64,000 bases of DNA, taken from IMG/VR virus record IMGVR_UViG_3300009124_000001; one strand, 5' to 3'. Position 1 is the stretch's first letter; each line of letters starts with the position of its first letter. Made by a program: the position numbers and the translations under genes. This document shows, one piece after another, positions 11,098 through 45,483 of the stretch. The notes below the pieces were generated by a model. That model did not search any database. It had not been told where the DNA came from and saw nothing but the letters and a program-made list of their open reading frames with translations. The stretch comes from a virus.

Positions 11098-11104
11098 TAT
11101 TTAT
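11098..11104 (-). promoter_or_regulatory. Late promoter core for the gp9-like gene
   Basis: ATAAATA overlapping the upstream stop. Confidence 0.6.
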
Positions 11105-12705
11105 GTTGCGTCAAAAGAGATACTTGTAGTATCAAACTTAGTATCAGTAGACGAGAAGTCAACGTCTCCTTGACCATCACCAAATCCAGTAACGACAAGT
11201 GTCGCCACATCAGAAGTTAGTGGGGAGTTCTGTGCGGGAGTTACGCCAAGACCCAAAGGTCCACGAATCTCCACTCTATACTTATACCCAGACATATAGT
11301 TCAGGGCAGTAAACTGATATGTAGGATTAGTTGCACCAGTCAACACAGCGTAAGAGAATCCATTATCAGTAGATCTGTACCACTGATATGCCTTGGGACC
11401 ATCTTCGGGACTGACAGCAGCGGTAACACTAAATGTAACAGTCTGACCGACGTTAATGGTAACGTTCTGTGGTTGTAGAGCAATCTGCAAGGTTGCAGGT
11501 GCAGGAGGTTCACCACCACCTTGATCTGGTGGCGGCGGTGCAGCAGCACCATTGTTCGCTGGTTGGTCTAGCGTCTCACGGGTTGTAGAACCAATCAAAT
11601 ATGGAAATCTTGCTTGCAAGTTATTTTCACTGTCAAGTTCGCATGACAAGAAATATGCATAGGTGCCATCTTGAAATTCAGGAGTTATACAAAATCTACC
11701 ATTATGTGTATCTAGAATACCTAGACCCTCAGAATACTCCCAGTCCTGTATCAGAGATCCAGCAGGGGGGTTCTGCTGACTGTCACCGTAGATTGGTCTA
11801 CCAGGCACTTCTTCTGATTTAACTCTATAAGAAGTGCTAGCAATCGTTAGGTCAGAGTCATTGTCCCAAGGATCTGAATAACAATATGGACCATAGATGG
11901 GGAATCCATCAAACGCATAACCAAGAATCTTTGAATGACCATCAGGGTGTCTCAGGTTGTCACCATTGTACTGAGACGAACCATAATAATCATTATATGT
12001 AGACATAACAGAGTTTGCTTTCCAGCAATCAATGAAATGTGTGTCGTGGTAGTGATACTGTCCAGTGTTCTCGGGGTGTCCACCACAGTTGTCATCCCCA
12101 AAACTTACTGGGGATTCTTCATAGTGGGCGTTCCAGTTGAACCCTTGTGGGGGGTTGCCACCTGCCCCTGCGGAGGGATTAAAGAACACAACACCGTTAG
12201 CAGCAATACCAATAGCGCCAAGTGGAGTTTCTGTGCGACCATTACGTTGATCATAATAAGTGTATGTGCCATTATACCCTGATCTGGTGAATTCCATGAT
12301 CAGTTCTAGATACTGATCACTTGCTCTCCAAAACTCACCAGCAGTGGCAGTCTGCTCAGTGCCTCTGTAAACAAACACTTGCTTGTGTTCGTCGGGGGTG
12401 TTTGCGTCGAATACAAAAAGAATTCGATCACCAACTTGAATTTGATTGCCTAGTAGATCATTATCATCTACGGACAATGGGATTTGGATAAAGAATCCTT
12501 CATGCACAAAAGTGTTGTCATCGAAGGTTCTAGTAGTGCCAAATGTACCACCTCTATAATAGAAGTCATGCTCAAAATCCTGCTCAGTAACTTGATTGGG
12601 ATTATTGGCATTCGGGAACGTACCGTAGAGGACGGGATCTGGAAGACCATCGCCATCTACGGTAATAATTCTAGTGCCAGAGTTATATTCAGCGGTTGCT
12701 GTCAT
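11101..12705 (-). CDS. YHYH-domain virion protein with C-terminal Ig-like domain
   Basis: GGHPENTGQYHYH, GHSKILGYAFDGFPIYGPY, NGRFCITPEF..GTYAYF; Ig-like QPQNVTINVGQTVTFSV..YQWYRS. Confidence 0.85.
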   Translation of the reverse strand: MTATAEYNSGTRIITVDGDGLPDPVLYGTFPNANNPNQVTEQDFEHDFYYRGGTFGTTRTFDDNTFVHEGFFIQIPLSVDDNDLLGNQIQVGDRILFVFDANTPDEHKQVFVYRGTEQTATAGEFWRASDQYLELIMEFTRSGYNGTYTYYDQRNGRTETPLGAIGIAANGVVFFNPSAGAGGNPPQGFNWNAHYEESPVSFGDDNCGGHPENTGQYHYHDTHFIDCWKANSVMSTYNDYYGSSQYNGDNLRHPDGHSKILGYAFDGFPIYGPYCYSDPWDNDSDLTIASTSYRVKSEEVPGRPIYGDSQQNPPAGSLIQDWEYSEGLGILDTHNGRFCITPEFQDGTYAYFLSCELDSENNLQARFPYLIGSTTRETLDQPANNGAAAPPPPDQGGGEPPAPATLQIALQPQNVTINVGQTVTFSVTAAVSPEDGPKAYQWYRSTDNGFSYAVLTGATNPTYQFTALNYMSGYKYRVEIRGPLGLGVTPAQNSPLTSDVATLVVTGFGDGQGDVDFSSTDTKFDTTSISFDAT

Positions 12706-12718: not shown

Positions 12719-12725
12719 TATTTAT
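12719..12725 (-). promoter_or_regulatory. Late promoter core for the YHYH gene
   Basis: ATAAATA overlapping the gp7 stop. Confidence 0.6.
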
Positions 12726-15700
12726 TGGAAGATCTGAGTCGGGTTGAAGTTGCTGATGATAGTAGCACCAGTCTGAACTGTGAGGATCACAGAGTTGGAG
12801 TAGACAGGTGTAGCACCAGCAGCGGTGATAGCAACGCGGAATTCATCACCGTCATCTGCTTGTTCGGCAGGGTTGGAGTCATAGACGTTAGAAGTCTGAC
12901 CCGTGATGTTGTTCCAATCAGTTTCGCCATACTGCTTACGCTGCCACTGATAGTTCAGAGCGGTAGTTCCGATCTGGTTATCAGAGGACTGAATGAAGTT
13001 GGCGACAACGGTGAACTCAGCGGTCTGACCCTGGTTCACAGTCACGTTGGTGGGTTGTGATGCGATCTGGATATATCCAGGAACGATCACAATCGGATTG
13101 CCCTGAGGATCAGTACCCTCGCCAGCGTAGGTATCGAAACCTTGGTTGACGGCAGGACCAGTCGGGGGCACGAAGTCATCATCAACAGTAGTCTCAACTG
13201 CGACTGCTGGTTGTGCATAACCAACGCCACCAGTCTTCACGTCGATTCTTAGAATGCCCATCAAAGCACGAACACGACCATCGAAACCTGTGGCGGAAAT
13301 CACGTCCACGCTCGGGCGCGAGGTGTATCCATCACCAGGAGAAGTGATGATTGCTTCCGTAATCTCACCAGACTTGATGTTAGCGACTGCCTCAGCACCA
13401 CGACCTTTAACCGTGCCTGTGTACTCAAAGGTGATCAATGAGTTGGAAGACTCAATCAATGCAACTTCACGTTCGTCTGCCTCACCTTCGATTTGCAGGA
13501 TGTCGCCTGCTTCAATCGGAGGTACGACAGTTGCCGCGATCACGTCAGCGTCAGAACCGATGTAGGAGAAGGCAACGAACGTAGATCCTGCGCGAGGAAT
13601 CTCAGCGAAGATGATTCTAGAACCAACCAGTTCGTAACCAACGCCAGCTTCCTGAATCACACCATTGAGCGAGACGATAATGTTGTTCTCAGGCAGGATA
13701 GTGTTGGACGATACACCTTCCGTCAGAGTCAGGGAGTAGAAACCGCCCTGATACTTCAAGTTGAAGGACGAACGCAGAGAGTCAAACTCGAAACTGATGT
13801 CATCAAGTTGTCTCAGTTTACCCACGTAGTAACCGATAAATTCAGAACCGATGGTGGGTGGTTCAGTGAACTGAATCGAGTCAGAGAATGCCGTGTAGGC
13901 GTAGTTTGCACCAGGAGGTTGCAGCACACCGTTGACGAAAACGAGCAGGTGACCTGCGGGATCGGGGAAGTATGCTTCACCGTTGCTGACGGTGAGTTTG
14001 AAGGAAGTTGCAGTGCCATCGAAACCACGGAAGTATCTGTCGCAACGTGCGAGCAGGTTCTTCGATTGTGTAACACCAGCAGACCACCCATAGTCGGAGA
14101 TAATTGTCAGGTTAGAGGGGAAGTCGCCCACAACATCTTCCAACCAGATACGACCAGTGTCACCACTGATGGATTTGCCAGAAACCTTACCGTACGAAGT
14201 GTACTCAGTGACGGACACGTTGGAAATATCACACTGGATAACGGGGAAGTTATTCAGGTTTTCAAACTTACCAAGACCGCCCGAAAGGAGTTCATTGGGG
14301 TCTGTGGTCGTGTTGCCATCAGCATCAGCACCATAGGGTTGCAGGTTAGCGATCCAGATCTTGTGGATGCTGTTGTCGGGATCATAGAGATAATCGGTGA
14401 CAACGGCAGTCCAACCAGGAATCTTGGGAATACTTCCTTGCAGCAGGTAAACAAAATCACCCTTCTTGAAGTCGCCCGTGAAACCTTGGTCTCTCAGGAC
14501 AGTGTTGACATCACATTCGATAGTCTTGACCGCGTGTACATACTGATTGAGTTCAATGTCTCTGAAACTATCTCTGGTGATGTTGGCGATGTTGAGGATC
14601 TTGTCGGTGATAGAACCGTAGATGATATCGCCATCAATGAAGTCCTGTTCAAGAGTTTCAATGTCAATCGCAATACGACCGCCAGTGTTGCTAGTCAGAG
14701 AACCAGCAGAGTTTTCATAGGCGACGATATCTGCCTCAGCACCATTGGACTTGTTGAAGAGCATTTCATCAACGCCGAAGGATCCTCGCTCGGTGTTGAT
14801 CAGCATACGATCTCTGGCAGCAGAGGTAATTTCTGCTGTTTGGGCGCTATCAACACCTTCCAGGATATCGCTGACGGAGAAGGAACCAGTGATATTTTCA
14901 ACGTAGATCCAACCCTCATCCTCATTGTCACCCGTGAGGGGCGAAGTTTGAAGGACTGTGCCATAGTTTGTACCAGCACCTTGGACCTGAACTCTTTCAC
15001 CAATGTTGAATCTGCCAGTAGCAACACCAATATCAAATCTCTGATAGATCTTGATGATGTTTGCTTCGTTGTTTCTGGTGCGTACAATTTCAGATGTGGC
15101 GTTAGAGGAAGTACCCACAACCACGTCTGCGAGGCTAAACCCACCGCTTACAGGGTTGTCAATATCTCTGGTGCCATAGGTTGTAGTCGTACGAGTGATA
15201 CCAGAACGAACGTTCAGTTGCAGTTGTTGCTGACCAGTGGTAGCGAGGTTAACTGCAAACGGAGCAAATCTGGCATCGTGACGGATCTCCTTAGTGATCT
15301 CAAAGGCACTTGGAGTTGCGTTGAGCACATAGAAGTATTCCTGATCAGCAAACGCTGCCTCAACATCATTCGATGCAACAACATAGCTAAGGATGTCACC
15401 ACGCGAGTAGAAGTTCGGGCGATTGATAGTGATCTTGTTCTCTCTTCTCTCAAATCCAACTTCAACTGTCGGAGTATTGATAATCAGATCGGGGTCAGTA
15501 TTCCAGTCAAGACCTTCATCGTAAAGGTTCTGATTGTTAGTCGCATGGACGTTATTGGTCCACTGAATCTTGTTTTGAGACGGAGGCGTACCTCTGCTGA
15601 TAGCAAAGTATGCAGCATTCAGAGACGAATCAATCTTGAATTGGGTGGACTCAGGCTCGTACTCGTAACGATTTTCGATCGCATTCGTACCTTGGTGCGT

Positions 15701-18700
15701 GGGGTCAAGATAGATGTCATAACCATACCACTCACCACCAACTAAATTGTCATTGTAATCATCAAGGGCACGCTTGCAGTATTCGCTGATTCTTGTCACG
15801 AACCACAACAGATGTTGCTTTGTTACATCAGGGAACGCGATGAAGTTGCCTTCACCATCGAACCAAGTGTTAACGATTCTCAGAACACCTTGATTGCCGC
15901 CTGTGTTGAGGTCGTAAAGAAGACCACCAAGCAGTGTATCACCAAAAGATTCCTCAGCAGTAGTTGTGGGATATGCAGTCTGCACCTCAGCAAATGCCTT
16001 GGCAGAAATGGCATGTCTGTTGAAAAGGATTCTTCTAGCAACACTTCTGTCAGAATTGCTACCGCCACCAAGAGTGTCAAGCATCAGGTCGAAGAGAGAC
16101 TCGGCAGCAGAACTTACGTCATAGCAAGTGTAGAACTGATACTGGTTGTTGGTGTTGTATCCAACATCACGAGTGATGCCTGCAAGGTGACTGGAATTGC
16201 CAGCAGATGCCTCAGAGATAGTGTTAATAACAATGTCAAACAGTGTCTCAATTGTAGAGGCAGTTTGTGGGCAAGTCTCATTCCAGGCGGAAGCGGCACT
16301 GTCATAGGTAACGGTGGTGTCGCGTACGACCATTTCGGGAGCGTACTTAACAGGCCAGCAGTTGGGTAGAGACTTAGTGATAGTGCCGTCAGTAATGCTT
16401 GCGGGAGTGGTAATCGTATCAGTAACCACAGAGAAGAGATCTGTGATTGCAGATGCAACATCAGCACACTCATTGCCAGGATTCAGTGTATCCTGAGTAA
16501 CAACGTATCCACCTTGGTTATAGGGGAAGAAGTCAAGATCAGCGAAATACTTCTGAGAGAATCCATGAGCACCAGTGATGGTGATTGGTTGATCTCTCAT
16601 CACAGTGATAGCAAGGTCTCTTGCCTTATTAATGATCCAAATGGACTCAGTTGACTGTGAGGTGATGTGTGCAAGACTACCGTTGCTGACATAGAACTCA
16701 GCAGCACGGAACATCTTGTTGTTGCCACCAAAGCGGAGGTTCCAGACCATTGCATGAAGCATGTCAGTCACGTCATGGACGCAATTGATGTTGCCGCCAG
16801 GAATGACAAGACTTGGGAATTGTGCCAGACCCTGAGAAACTGCTTCCTCAGCAATCAGTCTGATGTTTCTCTCAATGATGTGAGAACCATCAATGAATCT
16901 ATCGTCAGTAGCATTCTGCTCGTATGTTGCAACATCAACAGCATCAACCGAGGATGTACCAACACCGCCAGGGTTAATTGCACCACCAGCACCACCTTCT
17001 GCCTGATAGATGTACAGGTTGTCGCGACCGAAACCATTACGCATCGTGAGGATGCAGATCTCCATTGCGATCTTGTACACGTCAATCGCTGCTTCTGCTT
17101 CTTGCTCAATGTGCAGCAAACTATCATCTTCTGGGTTCAGATAGAGGAGAGCAGCGTCATAAGTGGCAGAATTGCCGCCAAATCTTAGGTCATGGATAAC
17201 AGCGTCGATAACGCCCATCACGTCATCCTCACAGTTCTTAGAACCGCCAGGAATTGCCAGATCCAAATACTTGGACAGGTCATTCATTGTGTAAACTGCT
17301 TCCTTAGCAATCACATGCTTGTTCCTTTCAAGCATATTGGCAGCATCGATATTGTAGTTGGAAACAGTGTCCTGATAATCATAACCTTTGCTATCGATAG
17401 TGATAGTGGTGTCTCTGTATGCGGGGATTTCAGTGAACTGAGCAACATAGTAATCATCTTGCAGTTCGCTAGCGACGCCGAGTTCAGAAGAAGTAGTACC
17501 GAAGTTCAGCAGAGTGTTGCTAACTGCATGGAGAACGAGTTTCTTAACATAAGAGAAGGCGTCAAGCATTGCGCCCAGTTCATTCTCAACGTGAATGATT
17601 TCGTTATTGTTATTGATATAGAAATCAATTACATATTGAGTAGCGGAGTTGCCACCAGTGATCAGGTCCGTGATGACAGCGGGCAGGATGTATTCTTTAA
17701 TGTCACGAGCACATACTACATCGCCGTTGTAACCAGGGATATCAAGGAAGTCATACTGAGTATTGTTGATTTCTGCCGAATAGTAATCATTCAACCAACC
17801 GACAGTTTCATATGCGATATAGTCGCGATTCTTCCAGATCAGATCGCCAGCATCGCGGAATCTGTTACCTGTGGGACCGAGGATATCAGCGATAGTGTCG
17901 CAGAGCAGAACGACTTCATCTTGGATTGCCTGAGAGGCAGGAGATGCAAAGTTGTTAGGAATACGAAGGATATCAGTGTATTTGGTTCCGTTATAGTTAA
18001 CCAGATCAGTATCAGTTGTAGTAATAACATAGTTAATTACAACTGCCAGTTCAGTCCAAGTAAAGATGGATTGTAGCAGTTCGTTACCAACATAATTCAG
18101 ACCACCCTGCTTAGTGAGATAACCTCTACCAGCGATAACGCTATTGTAGTTACCACCATAACGCATGTCTTCGATGACTGCTTTGAGGATGTACTCCTTA
18201 GTATCACGCAGACAGAAGTTTGTACCTTGCTGGACGCCAGCACCATCAGCGGTGTCACCAGGCATCACGAAGTCAGGATACTTCTCCTTCATCAGACCAA
18301 CAGCAACCTCAGCAATCCAGTCGAGGTTCAGTTCGATCATATCAGCAGACTTGCGATACTCATCTCGTGCAAGGTTGATGTCTTCGACGATGATAGTCTT
18401 CTCATCGTAGTCAATACTCTTAGCGGTAGCAGAAGAGTTAGTCTGACCAGTGTAAGTTGCATATCTCTCTTCATTGCTGATGATGAGAGGCAACTCCATG
18501 CTCATGGAGAAACTGATATTTTGGTTGTCGGTCGGGAAGGTGAAACCAGGAGTGAATGTCTGACTGTAATCAGAAACACCCTTCTTGATGATGATGTTGT
18601 CCAGGTGACCAACAAATCCGCTAGCACCATTGAGGTCAGCACCAATCGTGAACGCACGTTCCAGATAGTTGTTATTGTCAGTGTAGTCGCCACCAACCTG

Positions 18701-21700
18701 AGATCCATTGACCCAGATCTTAGTGATGTTAGTGGTTCTGGTTACTGCAATATGATGCCAGGCGTTAGTGCCCAGTCCATGAGCAGCAGAGATCTGATCG
18801 CTACCGTTATACCACCATGCAATGTTGGCACCATTCAGGTAAAGAACAGGAGATCCATTCTCGGATGTGCCGCTAGTGCGAGTATCGAAGAGATACTGAA
18901 CACCAGAGATAGTCGTAGGTCTGACCCACATCTCAATGGTGAAGTCCTCAGTACCGAACTTCTGAACATCACTAAGTGTATGACTCAGATATGCACCAGC
19001 GTCAAGTCTGAGAGACTTAGTGCCAGATTTGTACTCCAAACCAGTCAGGACAGCACTACCGTTAGCGGTAAGTCTTGTATTAGTGATGTACTCTCTATTC
19101 TGGAAGATGCCTGTGATCGAATCAGTGAACAACCATTTCAGACCAGCGTTGGTTCCCTTGGCAGTGAAGGTAGCACCAGAGGTTGTGCCACTGATTGTTT
19201 CGCCAGGCAGGAAGAGACCATTAGCACCAGGATCCTTGTAGGAGATCTTGTAAACACGAAGGTTCTCATTCTCTTGGAAAGAACCATCACTAATCACTGC
19301 CAGAGCGTTGATGTTGTTCAGGTTACCTGCATTGATTGCCGTAGTAGCAATCGTGGTCAGAGTATCCAGAGCAGCCTGTACGTCAGCACAGTTGGCAGCG
19401 TCTTGGTTGTTGCCAGAGGCGTAGTTGGGATCATATGTATGACCCTCAGTAGGAGAGGTTAGATAAGGACCAGAATATGTGGTGGGATCGTAGACCAGAG
19501 TCAGATCCTTGTCATACAGCAGGTTGTTGATGGCAAGTTTTGCCATGTCTCTTGCCTTATTGAAGGCAGTGATGGACTCAGCAGTCTCACCAACCAGACC
19601 ATTGCTGATAGGAGCACCGTTAGCGTCGAAGTAGAACTTGGTGAAGGTTACAACACCATAGTTACCATCGCCCTTGATATCCTGAACCAGAGCATCAACG
19701 AAATACCCGATGTCACGACGACACTTGGTCTCATTGCTGCTATATGTGCTGGGTTCAGAGAGTTCGATCAGATCAGACAAGGAACCTGCGAGTAGAACCT
19801 CAGATACATTGTCGAACAGAGTTTGCAGGGCAGACTGAACATCCGAGCAGTTGTTAGCGCCGAAGTTATCAGCGTTGCTACCAGGAGTACCGTAAGGATT
19901 TCCAGGAGAAGGATCAGCAGTGATTCCAGTGCCACTAGAACCACCAGTGCTGCGCTCGTCATACAGGTTGTAGACAACAGCGTCAACGGTATCAGTGCCC
20001 GTCAGCATGTTGGTCAGAGCATTCTTCATGTATCCGAGTGCTTGCTCGAATGCATATTCAGTTGCTTCTGCTTCGTTGTTGATATACAGGAAGGTCAGAC
20101 CATCATCACTGAAATACATCTGCAAGAACTTGCGGGTGTAAACAGTGCCACCTTGGAACATGTCCATAGAGATAGCATCGATGAAGTGACCGATGTCACG
20201 ACGACACTTGGTGGGGGAAGGAATCGGCAAAGAAGGATACTGAACCACCATGTCAGAGTAAGACTTGGCGATGATGTAATCCTTATTGCGATGGATGAGA
20301 CGATATGCATCGGCATATCTGCTGAACTGGTCAGTCTGGTTATCGCCAGGATAGTAGAATCCAGGGTGCTGAACAGCGATTTCAGCATTAGCAAAGTCAA
20401 CAATTTCTTGCTTGTTAGCAGCGATTCTGTTGGCAGCGTCGAACCATCTGTTCAATGCATCAGTTACAGGATTTCCATAAGTAACGGTAATAGAACGAAT
20501 TACATCGCCAACTGCGATAGTGCCACCAGTCAGATTCTCAAATTCAACTTCTGTCGAGCGAACTTCTTCAAAGTCGAGGAAATCAGCGTTAACACGATCA
20601 CTGCTATCAAGAATCTCAACAGGTGTGATTGTGGTCTTAGAAATGTCATCCAGAATGACGTTCTGGTTAGTCAGAGAGATCAGACGCTCAAAGATCATAC
20701 CGAAGAAGGTAGAACCTTTGTTGATCGTCAGAGTATCAACCACGTCACCCAGTCTGACTTCGCCCGACACAGTTTCAGTGGTAGCGGTATAAGTTCTAAC
20801 ACCTGCAAATTCTGTATAGCCTTGAACAGTTTCACCATCGGTTAAATCAGTCTCACTATTCTTCAAGTAGTACAAAACAGGAGGGGATGCCTCAAAGTCA
20901 ATCTTGACAACTTCACCAGTAGCACCAGAGGTGATACCTTCAAACTTATCACCTTCAACCATGGTGGACCATGCACCAGCAGGCACAGGTCTTACCAGAT
21001 TGATGCTAACGATAGGATCTCTGTAAGGTGAGATACTGGTGATTCTTGCAGCAATATTAGATGCAGCAGAATAGAAGATGTCATTCAGGAACAAGTTATA
21101 CTGACCTGTCTCAAACTCAGCAGTACCAGAGGTCTTAGAAAGGACCAGTTTGTCGGAGATATTGCCATCCAGGTCGAGGTTAGATTCTTCAATGACGGCA
21201 GTATCACCAGTCATATTGGTGACAGTCTCGCCAAATTCAAAGATAGTCTTGTAGTTAACACTGTCAATGTTCAGGACATTTGCACCATACCCAGCATTGA
21301 AGAAGTTGATGTCCTCACCACGATCAAAGAATCCGTTGGACATATCTGTCACTTGGATGCTGTTATCAGTCAGATCGATAGAAGTAATAGTTGCTCTTGC
21401 ACCTGTGGTCTGACCGACAATGATGTCACCGATAAGACCTGTATCGAATGTACCACCAATGCTTTGGAGGAACAGTTTGGTGAAGGACTTTTCGATGGTT
21501 CCGATCAGAGCACTAAATCCAGTTCTATTAACATCAACACGCTCGTTCAGAGCAAAACTTCCACTGATATCAACAACATCAATGCTAGTAGCACCTGTTG
21601 CAACAACCTTAGCAGTAGTTTCGGTTTCAAAACCAAAGACATTATCACCGATTGAGGGGAAGATACCAGCAATACTATTCAAATTCAGTCTGGTGATAGG

Positions 21701-24700
21701 CATGAAATCGAAAGCGATATTTCGATATACAACCTTAGAGTCAGGTCTCGGTGGCTCAGAGAAGACAATCTCATTACCAACTACCTGATAGGAACTACCA
21801 GGAGACTGAATAACACCATTAATTGTGATGAGTAGTTGGTTATCCTTAACGATAACTTGCTCTCCCTCAACTCTCAGGGGGAAGTTCTTTTTAAGACCAT
21901 CGAATTGACCAGAGATATCGTCGATCTTCTTAACGATCGAGGTAAGAATTTCCTCAGAGTTGGTCAGTCTCTTCTTACGGAAGAGAACTTCGGAGTTGTT
22001 GAAGGTAGAGTAGATCGGTTGAGCAGCACCGAACGAGGTGATCTCGTTAACATTGGTGTACTCGTTGATGTTAACTTGCTTGGTGAAGTCAGCAGCAACC
22101 TTACGACCAGAGATATCTTTACCACCAGTCAGGGACAACTGACCGAACATATTGAAACCAACAGGGTGGTTATTTTGCAGAATCTGATTCTTCCATCTGT
22201 TGATAGGAATCTCAGACTTAATCACATAGGAGAAGTTCTGATAGAAGAAGGAGTCTTGAATCTTTTGAACAATCTCGGACGGTTTACCAACGTCATCAGT
22301 AAATCTACCAGCAGTCTTAGTAATAGCGTCAATGTTCAACACACCCTTAGCGATGTTGATATTGTCAATAACACCAGATGCACGAGAGATGACACCCTGA
22401 ACCTTGCCACCAACTAAGAAGTCTCCATCGGGGTTGGTAACTTTCAGAATCTTAGGTTCGATCTGCCAACCATCATTAATCGAGACAATACCAGTTGCAG
22501 TTGCGAGTTCGCGAGTCTCACCTTGGAACACTTCCTCACCTTCCAAGAAGCGAGAGGTCTCAACCACTGCTTCTGCTTTACCACCGAACACCTCGGTAAG
22601 AAGCACCTGACGACCAGCACCCTGAGTCAAGAAGGTAATGAAGTTGCCAGACTCGGCGTCAACAGGTGTCAGAGCGAAGCGCAGTTGGTCAGATTCCAGA
22701 CCATTAACTTCACCAGCAATAGCATAGTAGGTCTGAGCAGAAGACAGACTGGTCAAACCAACGCTGCTGGGTTTCGGCAGTTCACCAACGGTAGAACCAA
22801 TAGCATCAGCACGGAACTGAACCTCAGCGCCAGTGGTAATACCATGAGGGAAGTTGAACTGCAAGTAGTTCAGGTCGAGGTTCACAACGTAGGTGAACTC
22901 AGATTTCAGAGTAACATTCGGTTGCGAAGAGTACCCAGCACCAGGGTTCTTGATCAGAATCTCAGACAGTCTGTTGTTCTTAACGACTGCTTCTGCTTCG
23001 GCACCAGTACCGCCACCGCCAGAAATGATAACAGCAGGTGCAGAGGTGTAACCAGCACCAGGATCTGTAATTGTAATCTGAGAGAGGATCGAGGTATTGA
23101 AGAGTTGCAGGTTGATCGGGAATGCGATCTCAGGACGCAGAGTGTAGTCATGAGAGTAACCATAACCAAACTCATTGTTTTTCAGAGTCTTGATCTTACC
23201 GATTTGCTTACCAGTGAGGAACACAGCAGCGCCAGTACCCTCAGCAGGAATGACAACCTGAATCTCAGCACCAGAACCAGACAGGGTGGGACCAAGAATA
23301 CCTTGAATAGCATCAATGTCGATAGAACCGAACGTATATCCCTTACCAGGATCAGTCAGAGCAACCTGAGTAACAGTTCCAGATCCAATAATATCATCAT
23401 TCTCAACGGTGATATTGCAAAGACCACCTTCACCATCACCCAGAATAGAAACCTGAGTATATACGCCAGGTGCATATTCAGTACCACCAGAAAGGATACG
23501 CAGTTTCTCAATCTTACGATCAGATGCAATATCAGAGATGATGGGCAGTTTCTTATAGAATCCACCAGGAGAGATCAACTTAATAGAGTTGATAGGACCA
23601 ATTGCTTTCTTGGAAGTGGTGGAGTAGATAGTATTGGATTTGTCTTGGTCGTCCAGACCGATCTCAGCATTGTTGAACTCAGGCTCATACAGCAGCGGGA
23701 ATCTGAATTCAGTATCGCTAAGAACTTCGCTGATTTGGAATCTACCGTCATACGGAGTCTTGATAACGTCGATGAAGGAGTTAGATCCCACAGGAGACGT
23801 TGCACCAGTTCTGGACGGGTCGAAGTAGTAAGTAATGTTAGTAACTTCACCACCAATCGTGAACTTAACCACAGGTGTTTCTGCGGCAGAAGACAGACCA
23901 GGAGTGCCCTCACGCTCAATTACGTTGAAGGAGTATTCCAGTTTGAATTGGTTATCTTGTGCAAACGACAGATAATAACCAAAGTTGGAAGAATCACTCA
24001 GGTCAAAGATATATGAGTGATTTCTTACCAGCAGGAGTGTTGGGTGCTTGGAAGAGATCTTCACACGAGAAATAGCACCCTGAGCGAATGCAGGTTCGCC
24101 AGTAGCAATTGTTCTCAGTTTATAGGTAAAGTCTCTGGTAGAGAAGACTTCCTTAACGAAGAACGAACCATTAAACTCAGCAGTAGTGAATCCTTCAACA
24201 AACAAAATGTCTTTTGCTTTGAAGTTGTGAGGAGTCAATGCAGAACAATAAATGAGGTCAGTTCTGTTCTCAGCAGTTCTGATAATGTCCTTATTCAGAT
24301 TTACAGTCAAAGTAATTTCTTTGACGCTTGCAAGACCAGAGACCTCAGCAATCTTATTGTCAGTATCTGCCTTAGGTCCAGCATTGATGCTGTTGCCCAA
24401 GGACACAACGTCACCAATAATAAAGTCAGAACCAGCGTATGTATTGACAATGGTTACTCTATAATCTGTCAGCGTGAATGGACGGAATCTTGCATAGTCG
24501 GAAAGTGGATCATATGTACTAACGAAGTTCCAGGTGACGGATCCGTCAGCAGCACTACCCGTGGTGTGAGATGGTCCAACAGTGCCAGATACACCACCAG
24601 TTGCACATGTATACTTATTTCTACCAAAGTAGACAACATCACCAGCAACATATGTAGTTGTTGCAATCCACTCGGGATCAGTAGGAGCAGGCCATGGGAA

Positions 24701-27700
24701 GTCAGCAAGGTTAACTTCAATGTTAGGTGCTGCACTGATGTAGGACCAAAGGACAGCGCCATCGGTTACAATACCAATCTCATGTGTGGGTGCAGTGGAA
24801 CCAGAAGTTGCATTGTTTGTAGCAGAGTAAATCTTACCATCGCTCCAAACTTGATCATTCACAACATATGCCTTACCTGCTTCCCAAGCATTCTGAGCAC
24901 GCTTTACAGTAAAGGAAATTTCGTCAATTGTGTTTTCTTCTTCCTTGTCATTCTTAAAGAGGTCATCATTGTTAAAGGTTCCAAAGATCTTACCAACCTT
25001 ATAGGTTGTACCATAACCAGGAGTGTTAACACTTCCAACAGGAACATCTACAATGGTGCCAAATGCCTGAACAACGCCATTCTCATTGTACTGTTGAAGG
25101 ATAGATCCTTTCTCAAACTTAACTGCCTGATTGAAGACAAACTCCTTAACAGCATCAATCTTCTGATAACCAGCGTCTCTGATGTAATACTTCGGCAGAA
25201 CCACAGGTTCAATTTTGAGTTTTCTACCCAGAGGGGTAGGAATAGTCGATGTCTTAGTTGAGAAGGTATGTCTCTGAGTATTGAATGTATATGTTCCAGG
25301 TGCAAGGGTAGAAACGACATCAGAGAAGTCAAGGATTTGCAGACCCGAAGGACCTTCATTCCAAACGGTAATTACAGGATTGGAGAGTGTATTAACATTG
25401 AGAGTTGTGTTTGCTGTGAAGGAGATACTCTCAGTGTAGTTGCCATCATATCCAGCGAAGGTGGTGTTGTAATCACCTCTCTTGCTGTGCAGACGATCAA
25501 ACTTAACCAAATCGAGCGCAGAATCCTGAGTTGTAATTCTATAACGCTCAGTGGGCACTTGCAGAGAAGAACCACTATAAACTGCACGGGATTCGACGAC
25601 AATATCATCGATGTTGCCGACAAAACTGTTGTTCAGAAGAGGACCTGCTTCTTGACCACCAACAACCAGATCATTCATCGAAATTTCATCGACAACTGTT
25701 GCAGTTGCAACATTTACGCCATCGAAGTAGCAAGAATACACATAGGAACCGAGAGAGGGTTCTTCCTTGACCAAAGCAATATGGTGCCAGTCGCTATCTG
25801 CCAAAGTAGTAGCATAAGTCGAACCAATCGACCAAACAGTAGTGGTGCTACCGCCAGAAGGTGCAATTTCAAGTGCAATCTTACCAAAGTTGCCATCACC
25901 AGAATCAAGGTTCATAATGTACTGAACGGTGCTGCCAGAATCATCTTTGGCAGTAATCATCTCAATTCTGGGATTGTTGGTCCCATGAGTAGGTGCCATA
26001 CGGACCCACATCACATTTGTCCACTGTTCAGTCAAATTCAGGTCGGTCCACTTCAAATAGTTGGCATCTGCAACATTCAACGAATTTGCGCCAAATTTGA
26101 AGATAGAAGAGTCCTGAGAAACGGCACCGCCGTCATATACGCTAATTGTTGACTTATTCTGCTTAGTATCGTCAAAAGTGAGTACAGCGTTCTCAAATCT
26201 ATGTACAACCTCTTGAATGGGGTGTTGGAGGTTCAGTGGGAGAATAATATCACCAGAGTTGTCAACAGCATGAGTATTGGCAGTAAAACCAATGCCAGTA
26301 TCACTGCTGCTGCCATTCCATTGACCACGGGTCACATTTGTAGTATACAGAGAAGTTCCGTCATACTTGAATCCAGAAATGACTGCTTGCTGGTCATTAT
26401 CTTCATATACAACGTTAGTGACAACGTTAACATTGCCAAATACATCCAGAGAGACCCCAGCGTGCTTGATAGACTCAAAAGTGACCGTGGGTGCCATGAT
26501 CTTGGCAAAATCCCACTCAGGAGTCGCAACAGTCAGTCTGATTTGATCCAGGGCGATCTTGAAGAAGGCAACACCATAATTCTTGGTGCCATTCCACATA
26601 TCGCAGACAAAGAACAGATCATTGTACTCATCGAGAACAAATTGAGGTCTTTGAACGTCACCACCAGAAACTGCAAGACGTTTGACATATTTAAGTTCAA
26701 TATTCGCACCGTCATACTCCATGACGCCGAACAGAAGATCATTATTGTCTTCATCAATACCACAGAAGGCAACTTGATTGTCACCAAGGTAATACAGTTG
26801 ATGCATCTGCTCACCTTCGGTTTCAGATGCAAATTTACGCTTTTCAACTACATCACCTTGATTGTTGAGTTGCATGACCCAGATATCATCGGGATCGGGA
26901 GAGTTAGTGTCGGTCCAACCGCAAATATAGACTCTTTGCTCTTCATCCAGGTAGATATCACCAGCATAGTCGCGACGAGTCGTACCAGACACACCAGCAA
27001 TCTCTTTCTGGAATCTTACAATACCTTCGGGGTTGTTAGCATTGTCCAGACCAGACTCATACTTAGCAACCAGGATATCGGGGTTGTAATTAGCAGTTCC
27101 TTGGGATTCAGTTTCACCAATCAGGTAAATGAGATGATTAGATTCGGATGTCTGGTCAAGATACATCTTCTTCCAACGTGCAGTCTTGATGGATGCACTA
27201 GGAAGCAAAGATCTGTCCCAAACGAGACTACCGAGGTCATTATACTTGGCAAGGAATGCTGCACTGTCACCATTCGGTTGAAGGATCTCACCACAAACAT
27301 ACAGATTACGATCATCAGCAACAACTGAGTCGTGAATCTTGATTTGACAGTTTGTCTGAGTCTCAGAGTAGATTGTAGACCAATAATAAGTCTTCTTGAA
27401 CTTCTGGGGATGTGATACGCGAATTTCAGGAGGAATTTCAGTATCGTAGTTGAAACCAGAGTTGATAATATTAACTTTATCGATCTTACCTGTCGTTACA
27501 TCCAAATCAATATCAAGTTCAACGTCTTGACCACTGGTTGTAATGATTTCGTAGGTTGGAGGAATAGATTCGTTGTAACCAACACCAGTTTGCAGGACAT
27601 TGATGGAATCAATGCCTGTGACCACAGACATATAGAATCTCTTGTTGGTATTCTCTGTAATGACTCTGGAACTAACGATAACTTCGTCTTGGGCGATCAG

Positions 27701-30700
27701 TTCGTGATCTGTTTCTGTTGTAATTCTTCCGTAGGGGATGTCGTTGATGACTTCCTTTCTATATTGAGAAATTGCAGCACCTTGAACAGATTCAACTTGT
27801 GCGCTAGCGCCAAAACCATCCGTTCCAGTGTTATCGAAGAAGAGAGTATCAGTAACCTGATAGGATACACCAGGATTCTCAATAACAAATCCATCGATCT
27901 GAGCATTCTCAAATTTCGTTGTTGTCTCAACTTCGATATCGACTCTGGACTCTGTTGAAACTCTTGGGAAGTAATCATAGATTTGAAGTGCTGCTTCCTC
28001 AGTTAACGCCTGATCTGTGGCGATTTCGTTGGGAGAAATGATACCATCATTATCTATATCTTCTGTTTCAAACAGAATCAAGAATCCTTCCTTCTCAGTA
28101 ACCAACTGATCGGACTGTTGGTTGGGTTGACGATCAATATCAATGTCAACATCCTCATAAGGATCTCTATAACGAGAAACGTCAGAAGGAATGTTTTCCT
28201 GAGTGGCATTCAGACTGACGTTCCAAGTGTCAACCACAGAGTTGAATTCGGGACCAATGATATACGGGAACACAGGCAGACCTGCTTCCGAAGCATCAAT
28301 AGTGATGAAGTATGCATAGATGCCATCAGGATACTCAGGAGTCTTACAGAAACGACCATTGTAGGGGTCAAGGTCACCTTCTTGGAAGGTGTACTCATAG
28401 TCATCAATGAACTGACCAGCAGGGTAGTCAGTCAGAGAGGGACCATCGACACGAGCGGGATTTGGGTTGGTGTCAATATCATATACAACGTTTGTTTTCA
28501 GTTTGTAGGAAGAACGCATTCTTCTGATACCACCATTCTGATCGGTGGGATCGATATAACCATAAGGACCATAGATCGGGTTACCATCAAATGCCCAACC
28601 AATAATCGGGGAGTGACTGATGGACGCGCCAGTCTCAGTACCCTCTTCAATAAATTGATTGTTTTCGGGGTTCAGGATAACGTTATCACCGACTACATAA
28701 CGCAGTTCTTTCGGATCGGAAACGTGAGCATATTCGCCACCATACTGGTTGTTGAAACCAGTGAACACATAACCACGAGCAACGTCATACTTGTTACTCA
28801 GTTCATATTCAACGTTCTTGTTCCATCTAAACACAGATGCTTCAAACGTTGCAAGTTGTCCAACTGCTTCCAATCTGACAGTAGTGTTACCTTGGGTGTA
28901 ACCAACACCTCTGTTGGTAATTTGAATAGAGATAACCTTACCCTTATCTTCACCGAGGGTTCCGATAACTGCCTTTGCTTGGGCACCGAAACCATCACCA
29001 TTGATGTATACAGTGGGTGCAGTGGTGTATGCAGTACCAGAGTTAATGATAGCAATCGAAACGATACGACCATTAATAACGATTGGTTGTGCCAGGGCAC
29101 CTTCACCAGAGTTTAACTTAATGTTGGGAATATCAGTGTAACCGCTGCCTCGGGCGGTAAGGGTAACACCCGTGATTGGACCACGAACTTGGGCAGTAGC
29201 AAGGGCACCAGCACCGCCACCACCAGTAATAGAGATAGTGGGTTGTGCTGTATATCCAGTACCAGGGTTACCGACCAAAACACGAGTCACACGACCGTTG
29301 GTAACAACTGCTTGTGCAGTAGCACCAGATCCACCACCACCAACGATGGAGATCAGAGGTTGCGAGGTATAACCACTACCTTCATTAGTAACTTCAATAG
29401 AACTCAGGGAACCATTAACGATTACCTCAGCAGCAGCACCGCTACCACCGCCACCAGTGATTTCTAGTTGTGGTTTGCTACCAGCATCATAGTCAATACC
29501 ACCATTAGTGATGCTAATGCCAGTCACAGGACCATATGTAACAAACTCTTGGTCTTTGTAAGACCATGCTGCAACGCCATTGACCCATGCACCAATCGGA
29601 GTGTTGGGTTTGACAACAGTTCTAGTAGATACAGTATTTACTGTTCTGGGGAATCTCAGCAGTTTGCGCTGGTTACCAGGAATGAGTGCCGATCCACTGA
29701 AAGGACCAATCTTGTAGTTGGGCAGACCAGAGGCAGCAACGTAAACGTAATCGTTATTGAAGAAAGTGTTCTGAATGTTAGAAGTAAACAGAGAGATCAC
29801 TTCATCGATCGTGTCCTGTGTGGACTTACCTCTGTTTAGGTCCACAGACAGCAGAATGTTACCCTGAGGTTCGATGTCAGTAGGAACAGGGATCAGATAC
29901 GAGAAGGTGAACTCATCCAGACGTGCAGTAACTTCAAACGTACCGTTATAAACAGCAGGGTTAGCACCATAGATGGTCACAGCGTCTTCGACGAGCAAAC
30001 CATGAGGATTGGCGCAAGTAACAGTTGCAGTTCTGTTCAGACCGCCTGGTTCAATACGATCAACGCGGATTAGTTTCTTAACGTTGTACAACCAAGACTG
30101 CAAACGTTGATCATCAGCAGTAGAACCCAGAGCAGCAACATTCAGTTTGTCGCCAGGCAGATAATAGGATCCACTGTCTTCGAGAACAGTTGTTGCTGCC
30201 TCAGCAATACCCAGAATACGAAGTTTGACTTCTGTTTCCAGTCCTCTGTTGACATATACAAAGATATCAGAATGGATCGTTGTACCAGGATCCCAATCCT
30301 CTACAATGCCATTTTTGGAACGAGTACACTCGATGAATTGGTTCAGAGACTTATCTTTGTACTGAACAACCTCACTATCATCAATAATGATCGTACCGTT
30401 CTTCTCAGGCCATCCAATAGTGGAGTCAACGGTAATAATGCTCTCGGTAGTGTCCAGAGGTTCAACCAAGACTGTTTTGTAGGGAATCTTAAACTCACCG
30501 CTCAATGTTTCTTCGGAAATGGCGAGTTCGTAGATAACATCAGTACCTTCGATAATCGAAATGACATTTTCGATCAAAACTGACGCATCTTTGATATTCT
30601 GGTCAACAGGATCAGCAATTTGAACCAACTGAGCGTTAGTCAGGTTGACGGGATCACCAGAAATCAACTGAGCACGCAAAATAGTGTCTACGACCCAAGA

Positions 30701-32942: not shown

Positions 32943-35123
32943 TTAGAAACAGGTTTCCGTTTCGGGATACACAAAGGCATCCACGGGGTAGTTGATTGTA
33001 TTTATGCCGCCGCCACCATAGTTCCATCCGTTGAAATTGAACGGATCGAAGTTAGAGATAGCGATGTCATCGACGTTAATATCTCTCGGATAAACCTCTG
33101 GGTTGAAGAGTGTTGGATCAACACCAGCGGGGATCTTGATAGATCCAGGTCCAGGAAGAACAACCACAGGAACTCTTGTAGTTCCATCTGGGGTGTCTGC
33201 AATATTCAAAGGTCCAACACAGACCTGTCCAGTCGAATAATCAACTGTGCCGACAGAGTTGTTCAGAATGACCTCTTTTTCGTTTCTGTTAGTAACCATC
33301 ATCATGTTACCCAGACCATCATCGCGAAGATTGACGGGAACTAGGGTAGTTGTGTTGGTTGTGGATGTGTTGAAGAGAACATTTTCAAGGGTGCTATTAC
33401 CACCTGCCAGAACTGCATCTGATGAAACAGTGCCTGTCAGGAGAGATCCTGCTGCTTCACCAGCAGCAATCAAATCGGCAACCTCTTCGGTATAACCAGT
33501 AGCGTAGAATGTTCCACTCTTGACTGAGGAGAACTTAGGTTTACAAGCGCCACCGCCATTGCCGCCACCATCGCCATCACTACCGCCGTCGCCGCCAGTA
33601 CCGTTCCCATCACCGCCGCCGTACTTATTGGGGTCAGTAATAGGATTGTCAAAGTCCAAACATTGTGTAAACTGATTGCCAAATGTAAATTGATCAAGAT
33701 TTTGTCCCAAAGACATGTGTGTAGTTGTACCAGCAATCGATGTGTCTGACGAATCAATCATCGAATTGAATTTGGACAGTTCCAAGCGACCACCAAAGCG
33801 ATCATTTCGATTCTGAGAGTTGAATTGATCAACAGACTTCAAAATTGCCGATGCAAGTTCATTGGAAGAACGAGATGTCTCGTTTCCATTGAATGTTGGA
33901 TATACTTTTGGTGAGATGTAGAAAATTCTAGGATCGACGATGATCGGTTCGATCGATGCCATAGAATAGTTCAGTAGTTGGTTCCTGATCCTCTTCTTAG
34001 TTGTGGTGTTGAGGTTAACACCTGTCTTGGATCTAACCGAAATGTAAACTTTGCCGTATTCTGGGGGAGACAACTTCTCTCCACCATATGCAGTGACTGA
34101 TGCTGCCTGAGGAAAGAGTTCAGACACTAGATATGCATAGTCTGCCTCAGTTACTGCTCTATTTTGGACAGAGAAAGACTTAGGAGCGCGATATTTGATG
34201 CTCAGACCAGTTTCGCGGTCTTCGCCATCCGCTGCGTTCTCGGTTGTGGTCATTGTGAGCGAAGCTGGCAGCACAATACGACCAGTATTGTCGATCAGAC
34301 GACCAATAAAGTTGAATTTGGTTGCACCATTTGCATCTGGACCATCTGTGTCGAGATATTCGATAGTGATGAACTCATTATCGATCAATTTGCGCCCAAG
34401 AACGCCATCACCGAAGGAAATTTTGTATCTGAGGTCTTCTGTCTCTTCAATAAAGTAAATACGAGAGGTAGAATCAAGTGCTGTGATGTTTTTGGCCAAC
34501 GAATACTCGTCAACTTCCACAGACTGCTCGTTTGGACGCACTAAAACTTTGATTCTTTCAGTATCTACGTTCTCGGATGGGATAATGTACTCAGGTCTAG
34601 CAGTATCATCAACTGTGTAACTATAACTGAGCAGGTTGCCCTGATAAATTGTAATTTTCGAGAAGGTAGCAATACCAGTGTTCTGGTCAACGTTACCTTT
34701 AACAGTATTCAGCAATGCATAAGTGTAAGATTCACCATCAACATTAGTGACGAAGACATCGCCCTTCTCAATTGTAACTGTGTCGGGGTAAGATTGCCCA
34801 CCAGGCAGAGTTGCCGCCTGTACGGTCATAGAAACGCACGCTCTGGACGATTTCTTAGACCTGGGGGTATACCCAATCTGCTTGGCGATCCTTACGATGT
34901 TGTCTCTAACAGTCGCAGATTCGAGGAACGCCTCATTCATCGACATGTTTGCCGTGAATGCTGCATAATATGTGTTGTATGCTAAGATATCGATCAAATA
35001 TGAGGCAGCAGATCCCTCAAAATCATAATCCGTGAACTCTTTACGAGTCCTCAGATAAGATCTGATAGATTCTTTGATCTCAAAAAAGTCTAGTGACGTT
35101 AATTCTGACGGAAGTGCTGCCAT
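32943..35123 (-). CDS. gp6: Baseplate wedge subunit gp6
   Basis: LDFFEIKESIRSYLR..EFTDYDFEGS...LIDILAYNTYY...NEAFLESATVRDN; QNRAVTEADY; PPEYGKVYIS. Confidence 0.93.
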   Translation of the reverse strand: MAALPSELTSLDFFEIKESIRSYLRTRKEFTDYDFEGSAASYLIDILAYNTYYAAFTANMSMNEAFLESATVRDNIVRIAKQIGYTPRSKKSSRACVSMTVQAATLPGGQSYPDTVTIEKGDVFVTNVDGESYTYALLNTVKGNVDQNTGIATFSKITIYQGNLLSYSYTVDDTARPEYIIPSENVDTERIKVLVRPNEQSVEVDEYSLAKNITALDSTSRIYFIEETEDLRYKISFGDGVLGRKLIDNEFITIEYLDTDGPDANGATKFNFIGRLIDNTGRIVLPASLTMTTTENAADGEDRETGLSIKYRAPKSFSVQNRAVTEADYAYLVSELFPQAASVTAYGGEKLSPPEYGKVYISVRSKTGVNLNTTTKKRIRNQLLNYSMASIEPIIVDPRIFYISPKVYPTFNGNETSRSSNELASAILKSVDQFNSQNRNDRFGGRLELSKFNSMIDSSDTSIAGTTTHMSLGQNLDQFTFGNQFTQCLDFDNPITDPNKYGGGDGNGTGGDGGSDGDGGGNGGGACKPKFSSVKSGTFYATGYTEEVADLIAAGEAAGSLLTGTVSSDAVLAGGNSTLENVLFNTSTTNTTTLVPVNLRDDGLGNMMMVTNRNEKEVILNNSVGTVDYSTGQVCVGPLNIADTPDGTTRVPVVVLPGPGSIKIPAGVDPTLFNPEVYPRDINVDDIAISNFDPFNFNGWNYGGGGINTINYPVDAFVYPETETCF

Positions 35124-43213: not shown

Positions 43214-43840
43214 TCAAACAGGGATGACATTGAATGTGAGAGTGATACGTTCATCTGATTGATTTGATTCATATCCATGGGTGAGATTAGATGGATAGAT
43301 GAGTACATCACCTTGTGCATATGGTACAGTTGCTTCTTGCAAATTGAATGCAGTCATCTGTTGGAAAGGTAACATCATGACAGGGAACATTTGAGACATG
43401 ACATTTCTTTTGAATTTTAAGTATGAGTGTTGTTTTACATCATAGTTAATGAACATTGTGCCAGAGAATAAGCAATTGGAGTGTTCATGTGGGGCATAGA
43501 TAGCACCTTTATTTGCGAGTTCAATGTATGCATCAGAGATACCAAAGTTCGATGCATAGGCGAGACCTGAATCGTTATGCTTTCTGGCAACATCAAGGAG
43601 TGCAGATTTGAGAGAGGGGAGATCTTGAAGGATCTTATTTGTTGGACCGATTTGAGAAACATTATGGCAGAGTTCGTGTCTGTTATGATCAACGAAATCT
43701 TCATTTTGCATCCAGCGAAGTATTTCAGGAATGAAATCAGAGAGGTCGTATTTAGTGACAGGAGTCATGAATAGACCATAAGTTTCAAACTGAATCTGGT
43801 CATCTAGATTAGGAGAAAGATTGATTTCTTGCTCTGCCAT
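43214..43840 (-). CDS. Fe(II)/2OG oxygenase (HxH...H type)
   Basis: YAPHEHSNCLFSG; IYPSNLTHGY; RITLTFN. Confidence 0.87.
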   Translation of the reverse strand: MAEQEINLSPNLDDQIQFETYGLFMTPVTKYDLSDFIPEILRWMQNEDFVDHNRHELCHNVSQIGPTNKILQDLPSLKSALLDVARKHNDSGLAYASNFGISDAYIELANKGAIYAPHEHSNCLFSGTMFINYDVKQHSYLKFKRNVMSQMFPVMMLPFQQMTAFNLQEATVPYAQGDVLIYPSNLTHGYESNQSDERITLTFNVIPV

Positions 43841-43912
43841 TGTAAATTAGTGCGGTGAGTGTGTATTATGTAGTGTAGCATGAAATGGGGGTGTTGTGGA
43901 CGCTTCTAGGGG

Positions 43913-44056
43913 TCACAGATCGAGTGGATTGAGATAGCGTACATCACCTTTGAGAATATCATCGAGAGCGTTTAGGAGTTCGTGTCCGTTAGAGGGGAAA
44001 GTGTGCAGGTAAGAGATAAAGAATTGACGTTGTGCGAGTTGGTTGGTTTGAGTCAT
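43913..44056 (-). CDS. Hypothetical protein (47 aa)
   Basis: MTQTNQLAQRQFFISYLHTFPSNGHELLNALDDILKGDVRYLNPLDL; ATGA coupling. Confidence 0.6.
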   Translation of the reverse strand: MTQTNQLAQRQFFISYLHTFPSNGHELLNALDDILKGDVRYLNPLDL

Positions 44057-44112
44057 TTGTTGAATTCGAGGATGACAATGAACGTGGCAAGAATGACGAG
44101 AATTGATGTCAT
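44053..44112 (-). CDS. Putative 19-aa hydrophobic micro-peptide
   Basis: MTSILVILATFIVILEFNK; ATGA overlaps at both ends. Confidence 0.5.
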   Translation of the reverse strand: MTSILVILATFIVILEFNK

Positions 44113-44441
44113 CCGAGGCGCATGGAAGAGAAGAAAGGAACGATGGAAATACCTTGGGCAGTGTTCATCGAAACGAACCAATCGAAGTTCTTTTGAAATA
44201 CACCGTCACCAGATTCGCCGTGCTCTTTCAGAATAGCATTGAGGCGAGATTTGGTGGTATTGGTTTGCCAACCACCATCAAAGAGGCGGATGAAGTTATC
44301 ACCGATCTCGGCAATCTTGTTACCGTGAAGGCGAACAACAGAGAGGTTATCTTCCTCGTTAAAGGAGACAGAAGTGTTACCAGACTGCCAGTTGGCGTTG
44401 TTAGCGATGGCGGTGTTCATTGCCTGCTCGATCTTACGCAT
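44109..44441 (-). CDS. Conserved cyanophage early hypothetical protein (110 aa)
   Basis: VVRLHGNKIAEIG..FDGGWQTNTTKSRLNAIL..GVFQKNFDWFV; behind a palindrome promoter. Confidence 0.8.
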   Translation of the reverse strand: MRKIEQAMNTAIANNANWQSGNTSVSFNEEDNLSVVRLHGNKIAEIGDNFIRLFDGGWQTNTTKSRLNAILKEHGESGDGVFQKNFDWFVSMNTAQGISIVPFFSSMRLG

Positions 44442-44490
44442 GATTTGAGATTGAAGGACGTTTGTGAAGTGAAATCCCCTCCACTCATCT

Positions 44491-44546
44491 AATATAGAGC
44501 ATTTTGAGGGTCGTGCCTGTTTTGTGTGCCAGTTCGCGGACTGGTC
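44491..44546 (-). promoter_or_regulatory. Palindrome-type early promoter, copy 1
   Basis: GACCAGT-ccgcg-AACTGGCAC followed by -10 TATATT (44491-44496). Confidence 0.7.
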
Positions 44547-44870: not shown

Positions 44871-44912
44871 GATGCGGAAAATGCGGAGAGTTGTTGTTAG
44901 TTTGCGGAAAGA

Positions 44913-45386: not shown

Positions 45387-45410
45387 TGGTCGTTTCGTTT
45401 GATTGATCTT

Positions 45411-45483
45411 AGTATTGCACCTTTCAGCGATCCAGGTAGTTCACAGTGATACAAAACCGCGAAACCACCTGGGGAACTGGCAC
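45411..45483 (-). promoter_or_regulatory. Palindrome-type promoter, degenerate copy
   Basis: GTGCCAGTT-cccc-AGGTGGTT; the candidate -10 AATACT lies about 16 nt farther away than in the other copies. Confidence 0.45.

Follow-up and report, generated by a model that had tools for sequence, protein, structure and literature searches.

Our analyses indicate that a giant baseplate protein encoded by IMG/VR virus record IMGVR_UViG_3300009124_000001, from which a stretch of 64,000 nucleotides (hereafter the window) was examined, contains seven domains that are true homologues of phycobiliproteins. As judged from the sequence, most of these domains keep both bilin-attachment sites with the counter-ion aspartate: site 1, of the Cys84 type, and site 2, of the Cys153/155 type, which is the site served by T-type lyases. 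These findings lead us to propose that the protein is a bilin-loaded component of the virion, a reading to which we assign a probability of roughly three in four. The gene and the features of its repeat array are as follows.

12722..32935, minus strand: giant baseplate protein in the position of T4 gp7, a single open reading frame (ORF) of 6,737 aa
20336..20458, minus strand: domain 1, N-terminal half (helices A-B); beta-Asp39 equivalent at 20438-40; profile coverage 2-40
19781..20329, minus strand: domain 2 (R1), complete and apparently inside domain 1; CRRD Cys at 20204-06, site-2 Cys at 19847-49, Asp at 20309-11
19322..19747, minus strand: domain 1, C-terminal half (R2, helices E-H); CRRD Cys at 19721-23, site-2 Cys at 19388-90; profile coverage 35-151
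18566..18988, minus strand: LamG/concanavalin-like domain (PF13385, E 1.6e-16) separating two blocks of repeats
17876..18370, minus strand: domain R3; CLRD Cys at 18212-14; site 2 lost, with Lys at the Asp39 position and helix H starting without a Cys
17501..17872, minus strand: domain R4, core; CARD Cys at 17711-13, Asp at 17852-54; helix H probably at 16067-16132
17021..17362, minus strand: domain R5, core; CEDD Cys at 17231-33, Asp at 17345-47; completed in the model by the helix at 16205-16279
16400..16909, minus strand: domain R6, complete and innermost; CVHD Cys at 16781-83, site-2 Cys at 16466-68, Asp at 16889-91
16205..16279, minus strand: returning helix H of R5 according to the model; site-2 Cys at 16271-73
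16067..16132, minus strand: returning helix H, probably that of R4 (assigned by elimination); site-2 Cys at 16124-26
15746..16060, minus strand: domain R7, degenerate; no site-1 Cys or Asp and no Asp39 equivalent

The repeats are homologous to one another (pairwise BLASTP E down to 2e-21), and a hidden Markov model (HMM) resolves them into seven units plus one N-terminal half. The phycobiliprotein family PF00502 matches the repeat region with E 4.2e-14 and 53.2 bits, against a gathering cut-off of 22.2; among single repeats R1 lies above the cut-off (25.4 bits, E 1.6e-5) and the others fall under it. In the other direction, a profile built from 96 phage repeats with no phycobiliprotein included retrieves phycobiliproteins from the PDB at a best E of 1.9e-7, and all 60 of the PDB matches listed are phycobiliproteins or a fluorescent-protein derivative. 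Because PF00502 finds the repeats and the phage-only profile finds phycobiliproteins, the homology is reciprocal. Profiles are needed for its detection, single-sequence phmmer searches of the PDB reaching E 0.13 at best. The pattern Cys-x-x-Asp...GG occurs five times within residues 4150-5750 and six times in the full protein; across 2,000 shuffled proteins the mean was 0.008 and the maximum 1.

Structure prediction leads to the same family. The AlphaFold model of R6 (predicted local distance difference test, pLDDT, 91.6; predicted template modelling score, pTM, 0.89) has a globin fold with helices A, B, E, F, G and H. The top 50 Foldseek matches to it are all phycobiliproteins, nearly all of them beta chains, and a search independent of Foldseek (VIA) ranks phycoerythrin beta first (Z 15.6, root-mean-square deviation, rmsd, 2.5, 144 residues aligned), with the best non-phycobiliprotein at Z 11.0 and other globins at or below Z 11. 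The predicted fold is that of phycobiliproteins and not an unrelated one, and together with PF00502 and the reciprocal profile it bears out the globin-fold homology proposed in the initial annotation of this stretch. By structure the domains lie nearest the beta subunits; by sequence, alpha subunits score highest over the A-E segment. The alignments begin at residues 27-35 of the cellular chains, which places the N-terminal X/Y helices among the missing parts, and no such segment precedes the repeats.

Conservation at the two attachment sites is what suggests pigment binding. The motif CXRD is the attachment motif of phycobiliproteins and of the bilin biosynthesis-associated globins, or BBAGs (PMC10151467). 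In the present protein six of the seven domains have the site-1 Cys and its Asp and four of the seven have the full Cys-x-Arg-Asp. The six site-1 cysteines first described therefore stand, every cited codon coordinate being correct, and the full motif applies to just four of those six. Among 325 non-redundant repeats of the gp7 type, Cys is present at site 1 in 83% and Asp three residues on in 89%; of the 267 repeats with this Cys, 266 have the Asp as well, compared with 20 of the 58 that lack the Cys. Conservation is higher still in a wider set of about 1,500 repeats drawn from 148 distant proteins, with C at 96%, R at 93% and D at 99%.

At site 2, position 5 of the profile, which is the Asp in R..DA, corresponds to residue 39 of phycobiliprotein chains. 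In the beta chain Asp39 forms hydrogen bonds with the pyrrole nitrogens of the bilin at Cys153 (PMC6614406). The Asp39 equivalent is the column most strongly associated with the distant helix-H Cys, being present in 27/27 (p 3.5e-10) and 62/63 (p 1e-43) of the domains that have this Cys, p-values that ignore sequence kinship. Here five of the seven domains carry both residues and two (R3 and R7) carry neither, so that all seven are concordant, with the equivalence of the helix-H Cys to Cys153/155 resting on alignment ranges and not on residue-level superposition. The site-1 Cys/Asp pair and the pairing of the site-2 Cys with Asp39 agree with the earlier proposal that both bilin motifs are present.

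These patterns bear on the idea that the domains carry no pigment and serve in structure or receptor binding, with a globin fold captured from host phycobiliproteins and cysteines that are structural (forming disulfides) or relics. Identity to phycobiliproteins of just 10-20%, degenerate copies such as R7 and the existence of phage bilin genes without the domains all speak for it. A disulfide or a relic would not predict an Arg in 93% and an Asp in 99% of distant repeats beside the Cys, however, and the coupling between Asp39 and the helix-H Cys is left unexplained. In the arrays of phages that lack psbA nearly all cysteines are site-1 cysteines (for example 24/24, 15/15 and 13/13) and have no partner within the domain. 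We consider a pigment-free role unlikely. An intradomain disulfide was rejected as a candidate: the site-1 Cys has no partner in several relatives, and the two bilins of the phycocyanin beta subunit lie 38.7 A apart. Pairing of the two cysteines had been named at the outset as a result that would speak against bilin attachment, and in most relatives the Cys is unpaired.

The array has an unusual architecture. R4 and R5 lack a last helix of their own, and three such helices follow R6. In a model of four domains (728 aa, pLDDT 82.7, pTM 0.81), residues 327-492, which correspond to R6, align to phycoerythrin beta, and so does the span 169-557, whose alignment to residues 27..177 of phycoerythrin beta has Z 16.0 and rmsd 2.5 over 144 residues. 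R5 is therefore completed by the helix that comes after R6, and R6 in the model is nested within R5. The next helix (16067-16132) probably completes R4, by elimination, and profile coverage suggests that R1 is inserted between the complementary halves of domain 1. Distant phage proteins likewise show several cores in a row and then several H helices, according to a position-specific scoring matrix (PSSM) for helix H that misses some helices. By eye, a possible helix H of R7 lies near 15581-15658.

This arrangement modifies what had first been described. The count of about seven repeats with one Cys-less copy near 15900 holds, R7 having no site-1 Cys. The array, first placed at 15860-20449, extends from about 15,580-15,750 to 20,458, with the LamG domain splitting it. 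The spacing of 105-119 aa between the two kinds of Cys applies to the three domains with a contiguous Cys pair but not to R5 (320 aa) or R4 (529 aa), because whole domains are inserted between their cysteines, as seen in the model for R5 and as is probable for R4.

The giant protein also contains a YHYH domain, LamG and a weak Pfam match to a baseplate wedge family (E 0.0014). Its gene is flanked upstream by gp6 (32943-35123) and downstream by gp9/10-like and gp8 genes. Across the repeat region the baseplate wedge initiator of Synechococcus phage S-WAM1 is 93% identical and its S-SZBM1 counterpart 71%, and we treat the source as an S-WAM1-like cyanophage; matches to PHROGs 701, 18802, 4527 and 5342 (gp7 wedge initiator/short tail fibres) span the repeats. 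The S-SZBM1 orthologue (6,619 aa) yielded 71 peptides from CsCl-purified particles (PMC9146016); the giant protein is therefore a virion protein. Although the sequence match to the wedge family is weak, gene order from gp6 to gp8, orthology with S-WAM1 and S-SZBM1 and the peptides in S-SZBM1 virions uphold the assignment to baseplate gp7. YHYH domains were observed both at residues of about 1400-1550 of the giant protein and in the next gene (11101-12705, minus strand).

The distribution of the domains was compared with that of genes for bilin synthesis and attachment. Queries consisting of the repeats alone matched 357-394 of 50,697 cultured phage records, all from cyanophages bar one single-cell marine virus and often with at least two baseplate or fibre genes each; the annotated carriers are baseplate and tail-fibre-type proteins only. 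For gene content outside the window we used as stand-ins the closest relatives, S-WAM1 and a complete genome from IMG/VR (G001). Both have cpeT, and neither genome was found to contain a heme oxygenase or bilin reductase; the pigment would therefore need to come from the host. The domains are present in 27/27 distinct cpeT-positive phage names checked, and no cpeT match was found in nine cyanomyoviruses without the domains (P-SSM2, S-SM2, S-SSM7, S-CAM9, P-TIM68, S-CRM01, S-B68, S-CBWM1 and S-TIM5), although the genomes are related, so that these counts and the p-values overstate independence, and the domain-less genomes may represent few clades. In the 16-genome table of Sullivan et al. 2010, cpeT is absent from P-SSM2, S-SM2, S-SSM7 and Syn1 (PMC3037559). 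The first three have no domains; Syn1 has domains and an annotated cpeT (NC_015288 19938-20477) located 0.7 kb upstream of a domain-bearing short tail fibre gene, and counting it the concordance in this set is 16/16. The co-occurrence with cpeT for which the initial annotation had called thus holds widely, with three exceptions that are weighed below. CpeS/CpcV-type lyases were detected solely in S-CBWM1, which lacks the domains. Homologues of cpeT stand unannotated or as hypothetical genes in S-E7 (MH920640 146705-147100) and in KU686210 (15000-15485), so that counting cpeT from annotations gives too low a number.

A profile search returned 1,264 protein clusters, some having more than 30 copies, and the loci of distant clusters are T4-like structural modules. 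Up to 35 copies occur in phages that lack psbA and are unrelated to the one studied here. In one of them (L009), a heme oxygenase gene and cpeT lie about 4 kb upstream of the domain-bearing gene, and a Cys is present on 11/11 of the H helices detected. In near-complete phages without psbA and psbD that have 14-25 matches, a heme oxygenase and a bilin reductase are adjacent in 4/4, and contigs selected for the reductase and at least 55% complete have the domains in 5/5. An equal frequency of the repeats in phages of non-phototrophs without bilin genes had been proposed as evidence against pigment binding; the carriers that lack psbA do encode bilin synthesis. Their domains keep site 1, and site 2 is absent by the helix-H PSSM, a combination that would fit lyase-independent loading of the kind described for BBAGs. 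A search for short proteins gave only four short phage-like pieces. In a 383-kb phage (G025), single domains at C1:101703-102134 and 225990-226415 stand in frames of 296 and 381 aa, in addition to the copies in giant proteins. Two further loci (L181 8524-12090 and L182 7313-13264) have a heme oxygenase and a bilin reductase followed by genes that by eye resemble those for curli secretion.

Besides the kinship among genomes, several observations weigh against a bilin-loaded virion protein. The structural model has no ligand, and the Arg of CxRD is missing from R5 (CEDD) and R6 (CVHD). In S-SKS1 and B3 the domains include the site-2 Cys and no cpeT was detected, a gap that a host lyase could fill. 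The reverse is seen in a phage (G013) that encodes CpeT and has domains without the site-2 Cys; its CpeT gene (L179 9177-9863, E 5e-22) belongs to a phage that lacks psbA, is low in GC and encodes GroEL. Bilin synthesis genes without the domains are found in P-SSM2 and S-SSM7 and also in the Pelagibacter phage Mosig, in which, as in HTVC008M, an exhaustive search (hmmsearch --max) found no domains. Mosig has a heme oxygenase and a bilin reductase directly upstream of neck genes (MT647606 39650-40886) and may have some other bilin acceptor. Because Mosig, P-SSM2 and S-SSM7 have such genes without the domains, the domains cannot account for every phage bilin gene. Finally, we found no literature report of coloured or fluorescent cyanophage particles.

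With these points in mind, we envision a scenario in which the domains make up a phage branch of bilin-binding globins that either descends from beta-type phycobiliproteins or is their sister group. Housed in baseplate and fibre proteins, they would be loaded covalently with bilins during virion assembly in the infected cell. Site 1 might be loaded spontaneously or by host lyases and site 2 probably by phage CpeT; we consider it somewhat more likely than not that CpeT serves site 2. Gasper et al. in 2017 reportedly found that a phage CpeT binds phycoerythrobilin and does not load the host subunit, an unconfirmed account that we do not use as evidence. A Synechococcus host would supply the pigment from its own pool; phages whose hosts make none would bring in a heme oxygenase and a bilin reductase. 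Up to 11 sites (6+5) could be offered by each copy of the giant protein. T4 gp7 is present in six copies per particle; by analogy, the same number here would give about 66 pigments per particle. Nesting, with the cores running outward and the H helices returning, may make the array a rigid multi-domain block.

Such a pigment would most plausibly confer on the free particle a trait connected with light, by gating adsorption or by guarding against light damage. In one version the bilins, once attached, form a light-operated switch, and the baseplate or fibres engage the host solely under illumination. Counting against a switch, the bilins of phycobiliproteins do not as a rule photoisomerise, phycoerythrocyanin alpha being the exception. 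Its appeal lies in the confinement of the domains, among annotated matches, to baseplate and tail-fibre-type proteins and in the adsorption data: P-HM1 and P-HM2, both domain-bearing, do not adsorb in the dark, P-SSM2, which is domain-less, does, and the domain-bearing S-PM2 shows light-dependent adsorption that is independent of host photosynthesis (PMC6628666). These are few phages on different hosts, however, and light enhances adsorption of P-SSM2 even without the domains (PMC6628666). In addition, the related BBAGs are photoinert (PMC10151467), the longest arrays occur in phages without psbA, and such diel traits are unreported for phages of heterotrophs (PMC6628666). A light switch strikes us as possible but on the unlikely side. 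About equally doubtful, taken as a whole, is the sweeping view that many aquatic myoviruses carry covalent bilins, that cpeT, often with heme oxygenase and reductase, pigments the particle instead of serving photosynthesis, and that a baseplate light sensor times adsorption.

Alternatively, the bilins could have no signalling function and, as a passive screen, antioxidant or structural cofactor, protect the tail in sunlit water or make it stiffer. A copy number of 1 to 35 suits a dose effect better than a switch, all identifiable sources are aquatic phages, and BBAGs bind bilins and yet are photoinert and weakly fluorescent (PMC10151467); on the other hand, tail pigments numbering from a few dozen to a few hundred would presumably do little to screen the DNA in the head. 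We regard this passive role as a serious possibility that stops short of even odds. A last possibility places the action of the domains inside the infected cell or at the moment of contact, where they could serve as a sink for bilins or mimic a phycobilisome, binding lyases, linkers or pigments of the host. The homology to antenna subunits of the host and the alteration of host phycoerythrin levels by S-PM2 infection are in line with this idea, but the domains are embedded in late structural proteins of the virion, lack the N-terminal helices of the alpha-beta unit and reach their greatest expansion in phages that have no photosynthesis genes, which together make an intracellular role very improbable.

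Elsewhere in the window we observed a gene for a PrnA-like tryptophan halogenase (57510-59093, minus strand; PF04820, E 6e-93); prnA is known from cyanophages. A long series of ORFs of 170-240 aa on the minus strand (43214-57058) resembles 2OG-Fe(II) oxygenases by appearance, and within this run Pfam searches identify a helicase (50538-51785) and a tail-lysozyme-like gene (47918-48445).

For cyanophage cpeT the role has been called "unresolved" and for phage pcyA/pebS "a mystery" (PMC3037559), the heme oxygenase and bilin reductase cassette of heterotroph phages has been described as "still enigmatic" (PMC11480375), and for light-dependent adsorption the choice between host receptors and phage fibres has been left open (PMC6628666). 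The domains described here offer one concrete and cheap test for all three puzzles in cultured phages (S-PM2, Syn9, P-HM2 and S-WAM1). If our proposal is true, several genes that pass for auxiliary metabolic genes would instead serve virion maturation, and monomeric, lyase-independent bilin-binding domains could provide useful fluorescent tags. We know of no precedent for a virus particle to which a chromophore is covalently bound, and proof of a virion that is pigmented or senses light would establish something categorically new. The initial annotation knew of no earlier description but allowed for existing database annotation. In the open literature, with most subscription journals outside our coverage, we found no description of phycobiliprotein-like virion domains, and an AlphaFold 3 preprint on cyanophages does not include these proteins; the PF00502 match is, however, already precomputed in public data for many orthologues. 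What the present tests add is the coupling of Asp39 to the second Cys, the nesting, the concordance with cpeT and the counter-cases.

Among known systems the phage domains most resemble the phycobiliprotein beta subunits (CpeB, CpcB; PF00502), with which they share a globin-type fold from A to H (Z 14.5-16 and rmsd 2.1-2.5 in compact alignments), the Cys-x-Arg-Asp site and a second Cys at the start of helix H together with the Asp39 equivalent. Unlike these subunits, they are only 10-20% identical in sequence, have no X/Y helices, possess a long G-H loop that can host whole domains, occur in tandem and nested within a virion protein, and have no alpha partner, linkers or phycobilisome; their pigment binding is predicted. 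Light-harvesting subunits are stand-alone proteins of 160-185 aa encoded in alpha/beta operons with linkers, whereas here the domains are part of a 6,737-aa baseplate protein among T4-like genes. ApcE similarly has a bilin-binding phycobiliprotein domain inside a large multidomain protein (Z 12.5-14), but this is a single domain and is anchored in the phycobilisome. In gene position, between gp6 and gp8/gp9-10-like genes, and in PHROG matches the protein resembles T4 gp7 and cyanophage short tail fibres, families that are annotated as structural only, with no pigment-binding role described. BBAG-1/3 (Rockwell et al. 2023, PMC10151467), likened here by description, are also CXRD globins outside light harvesting; they are linked to heme oxygenase and bilin reductase and bind bilin without a lyase. 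They differ in being cellular and clustered with V4R and iron-sulfur proteins, and the paper names no viral or tandem forms. The phage domains thus belong to the phycobiliprotein-like globins, yet they do not qualify as light-harvesting subunits.

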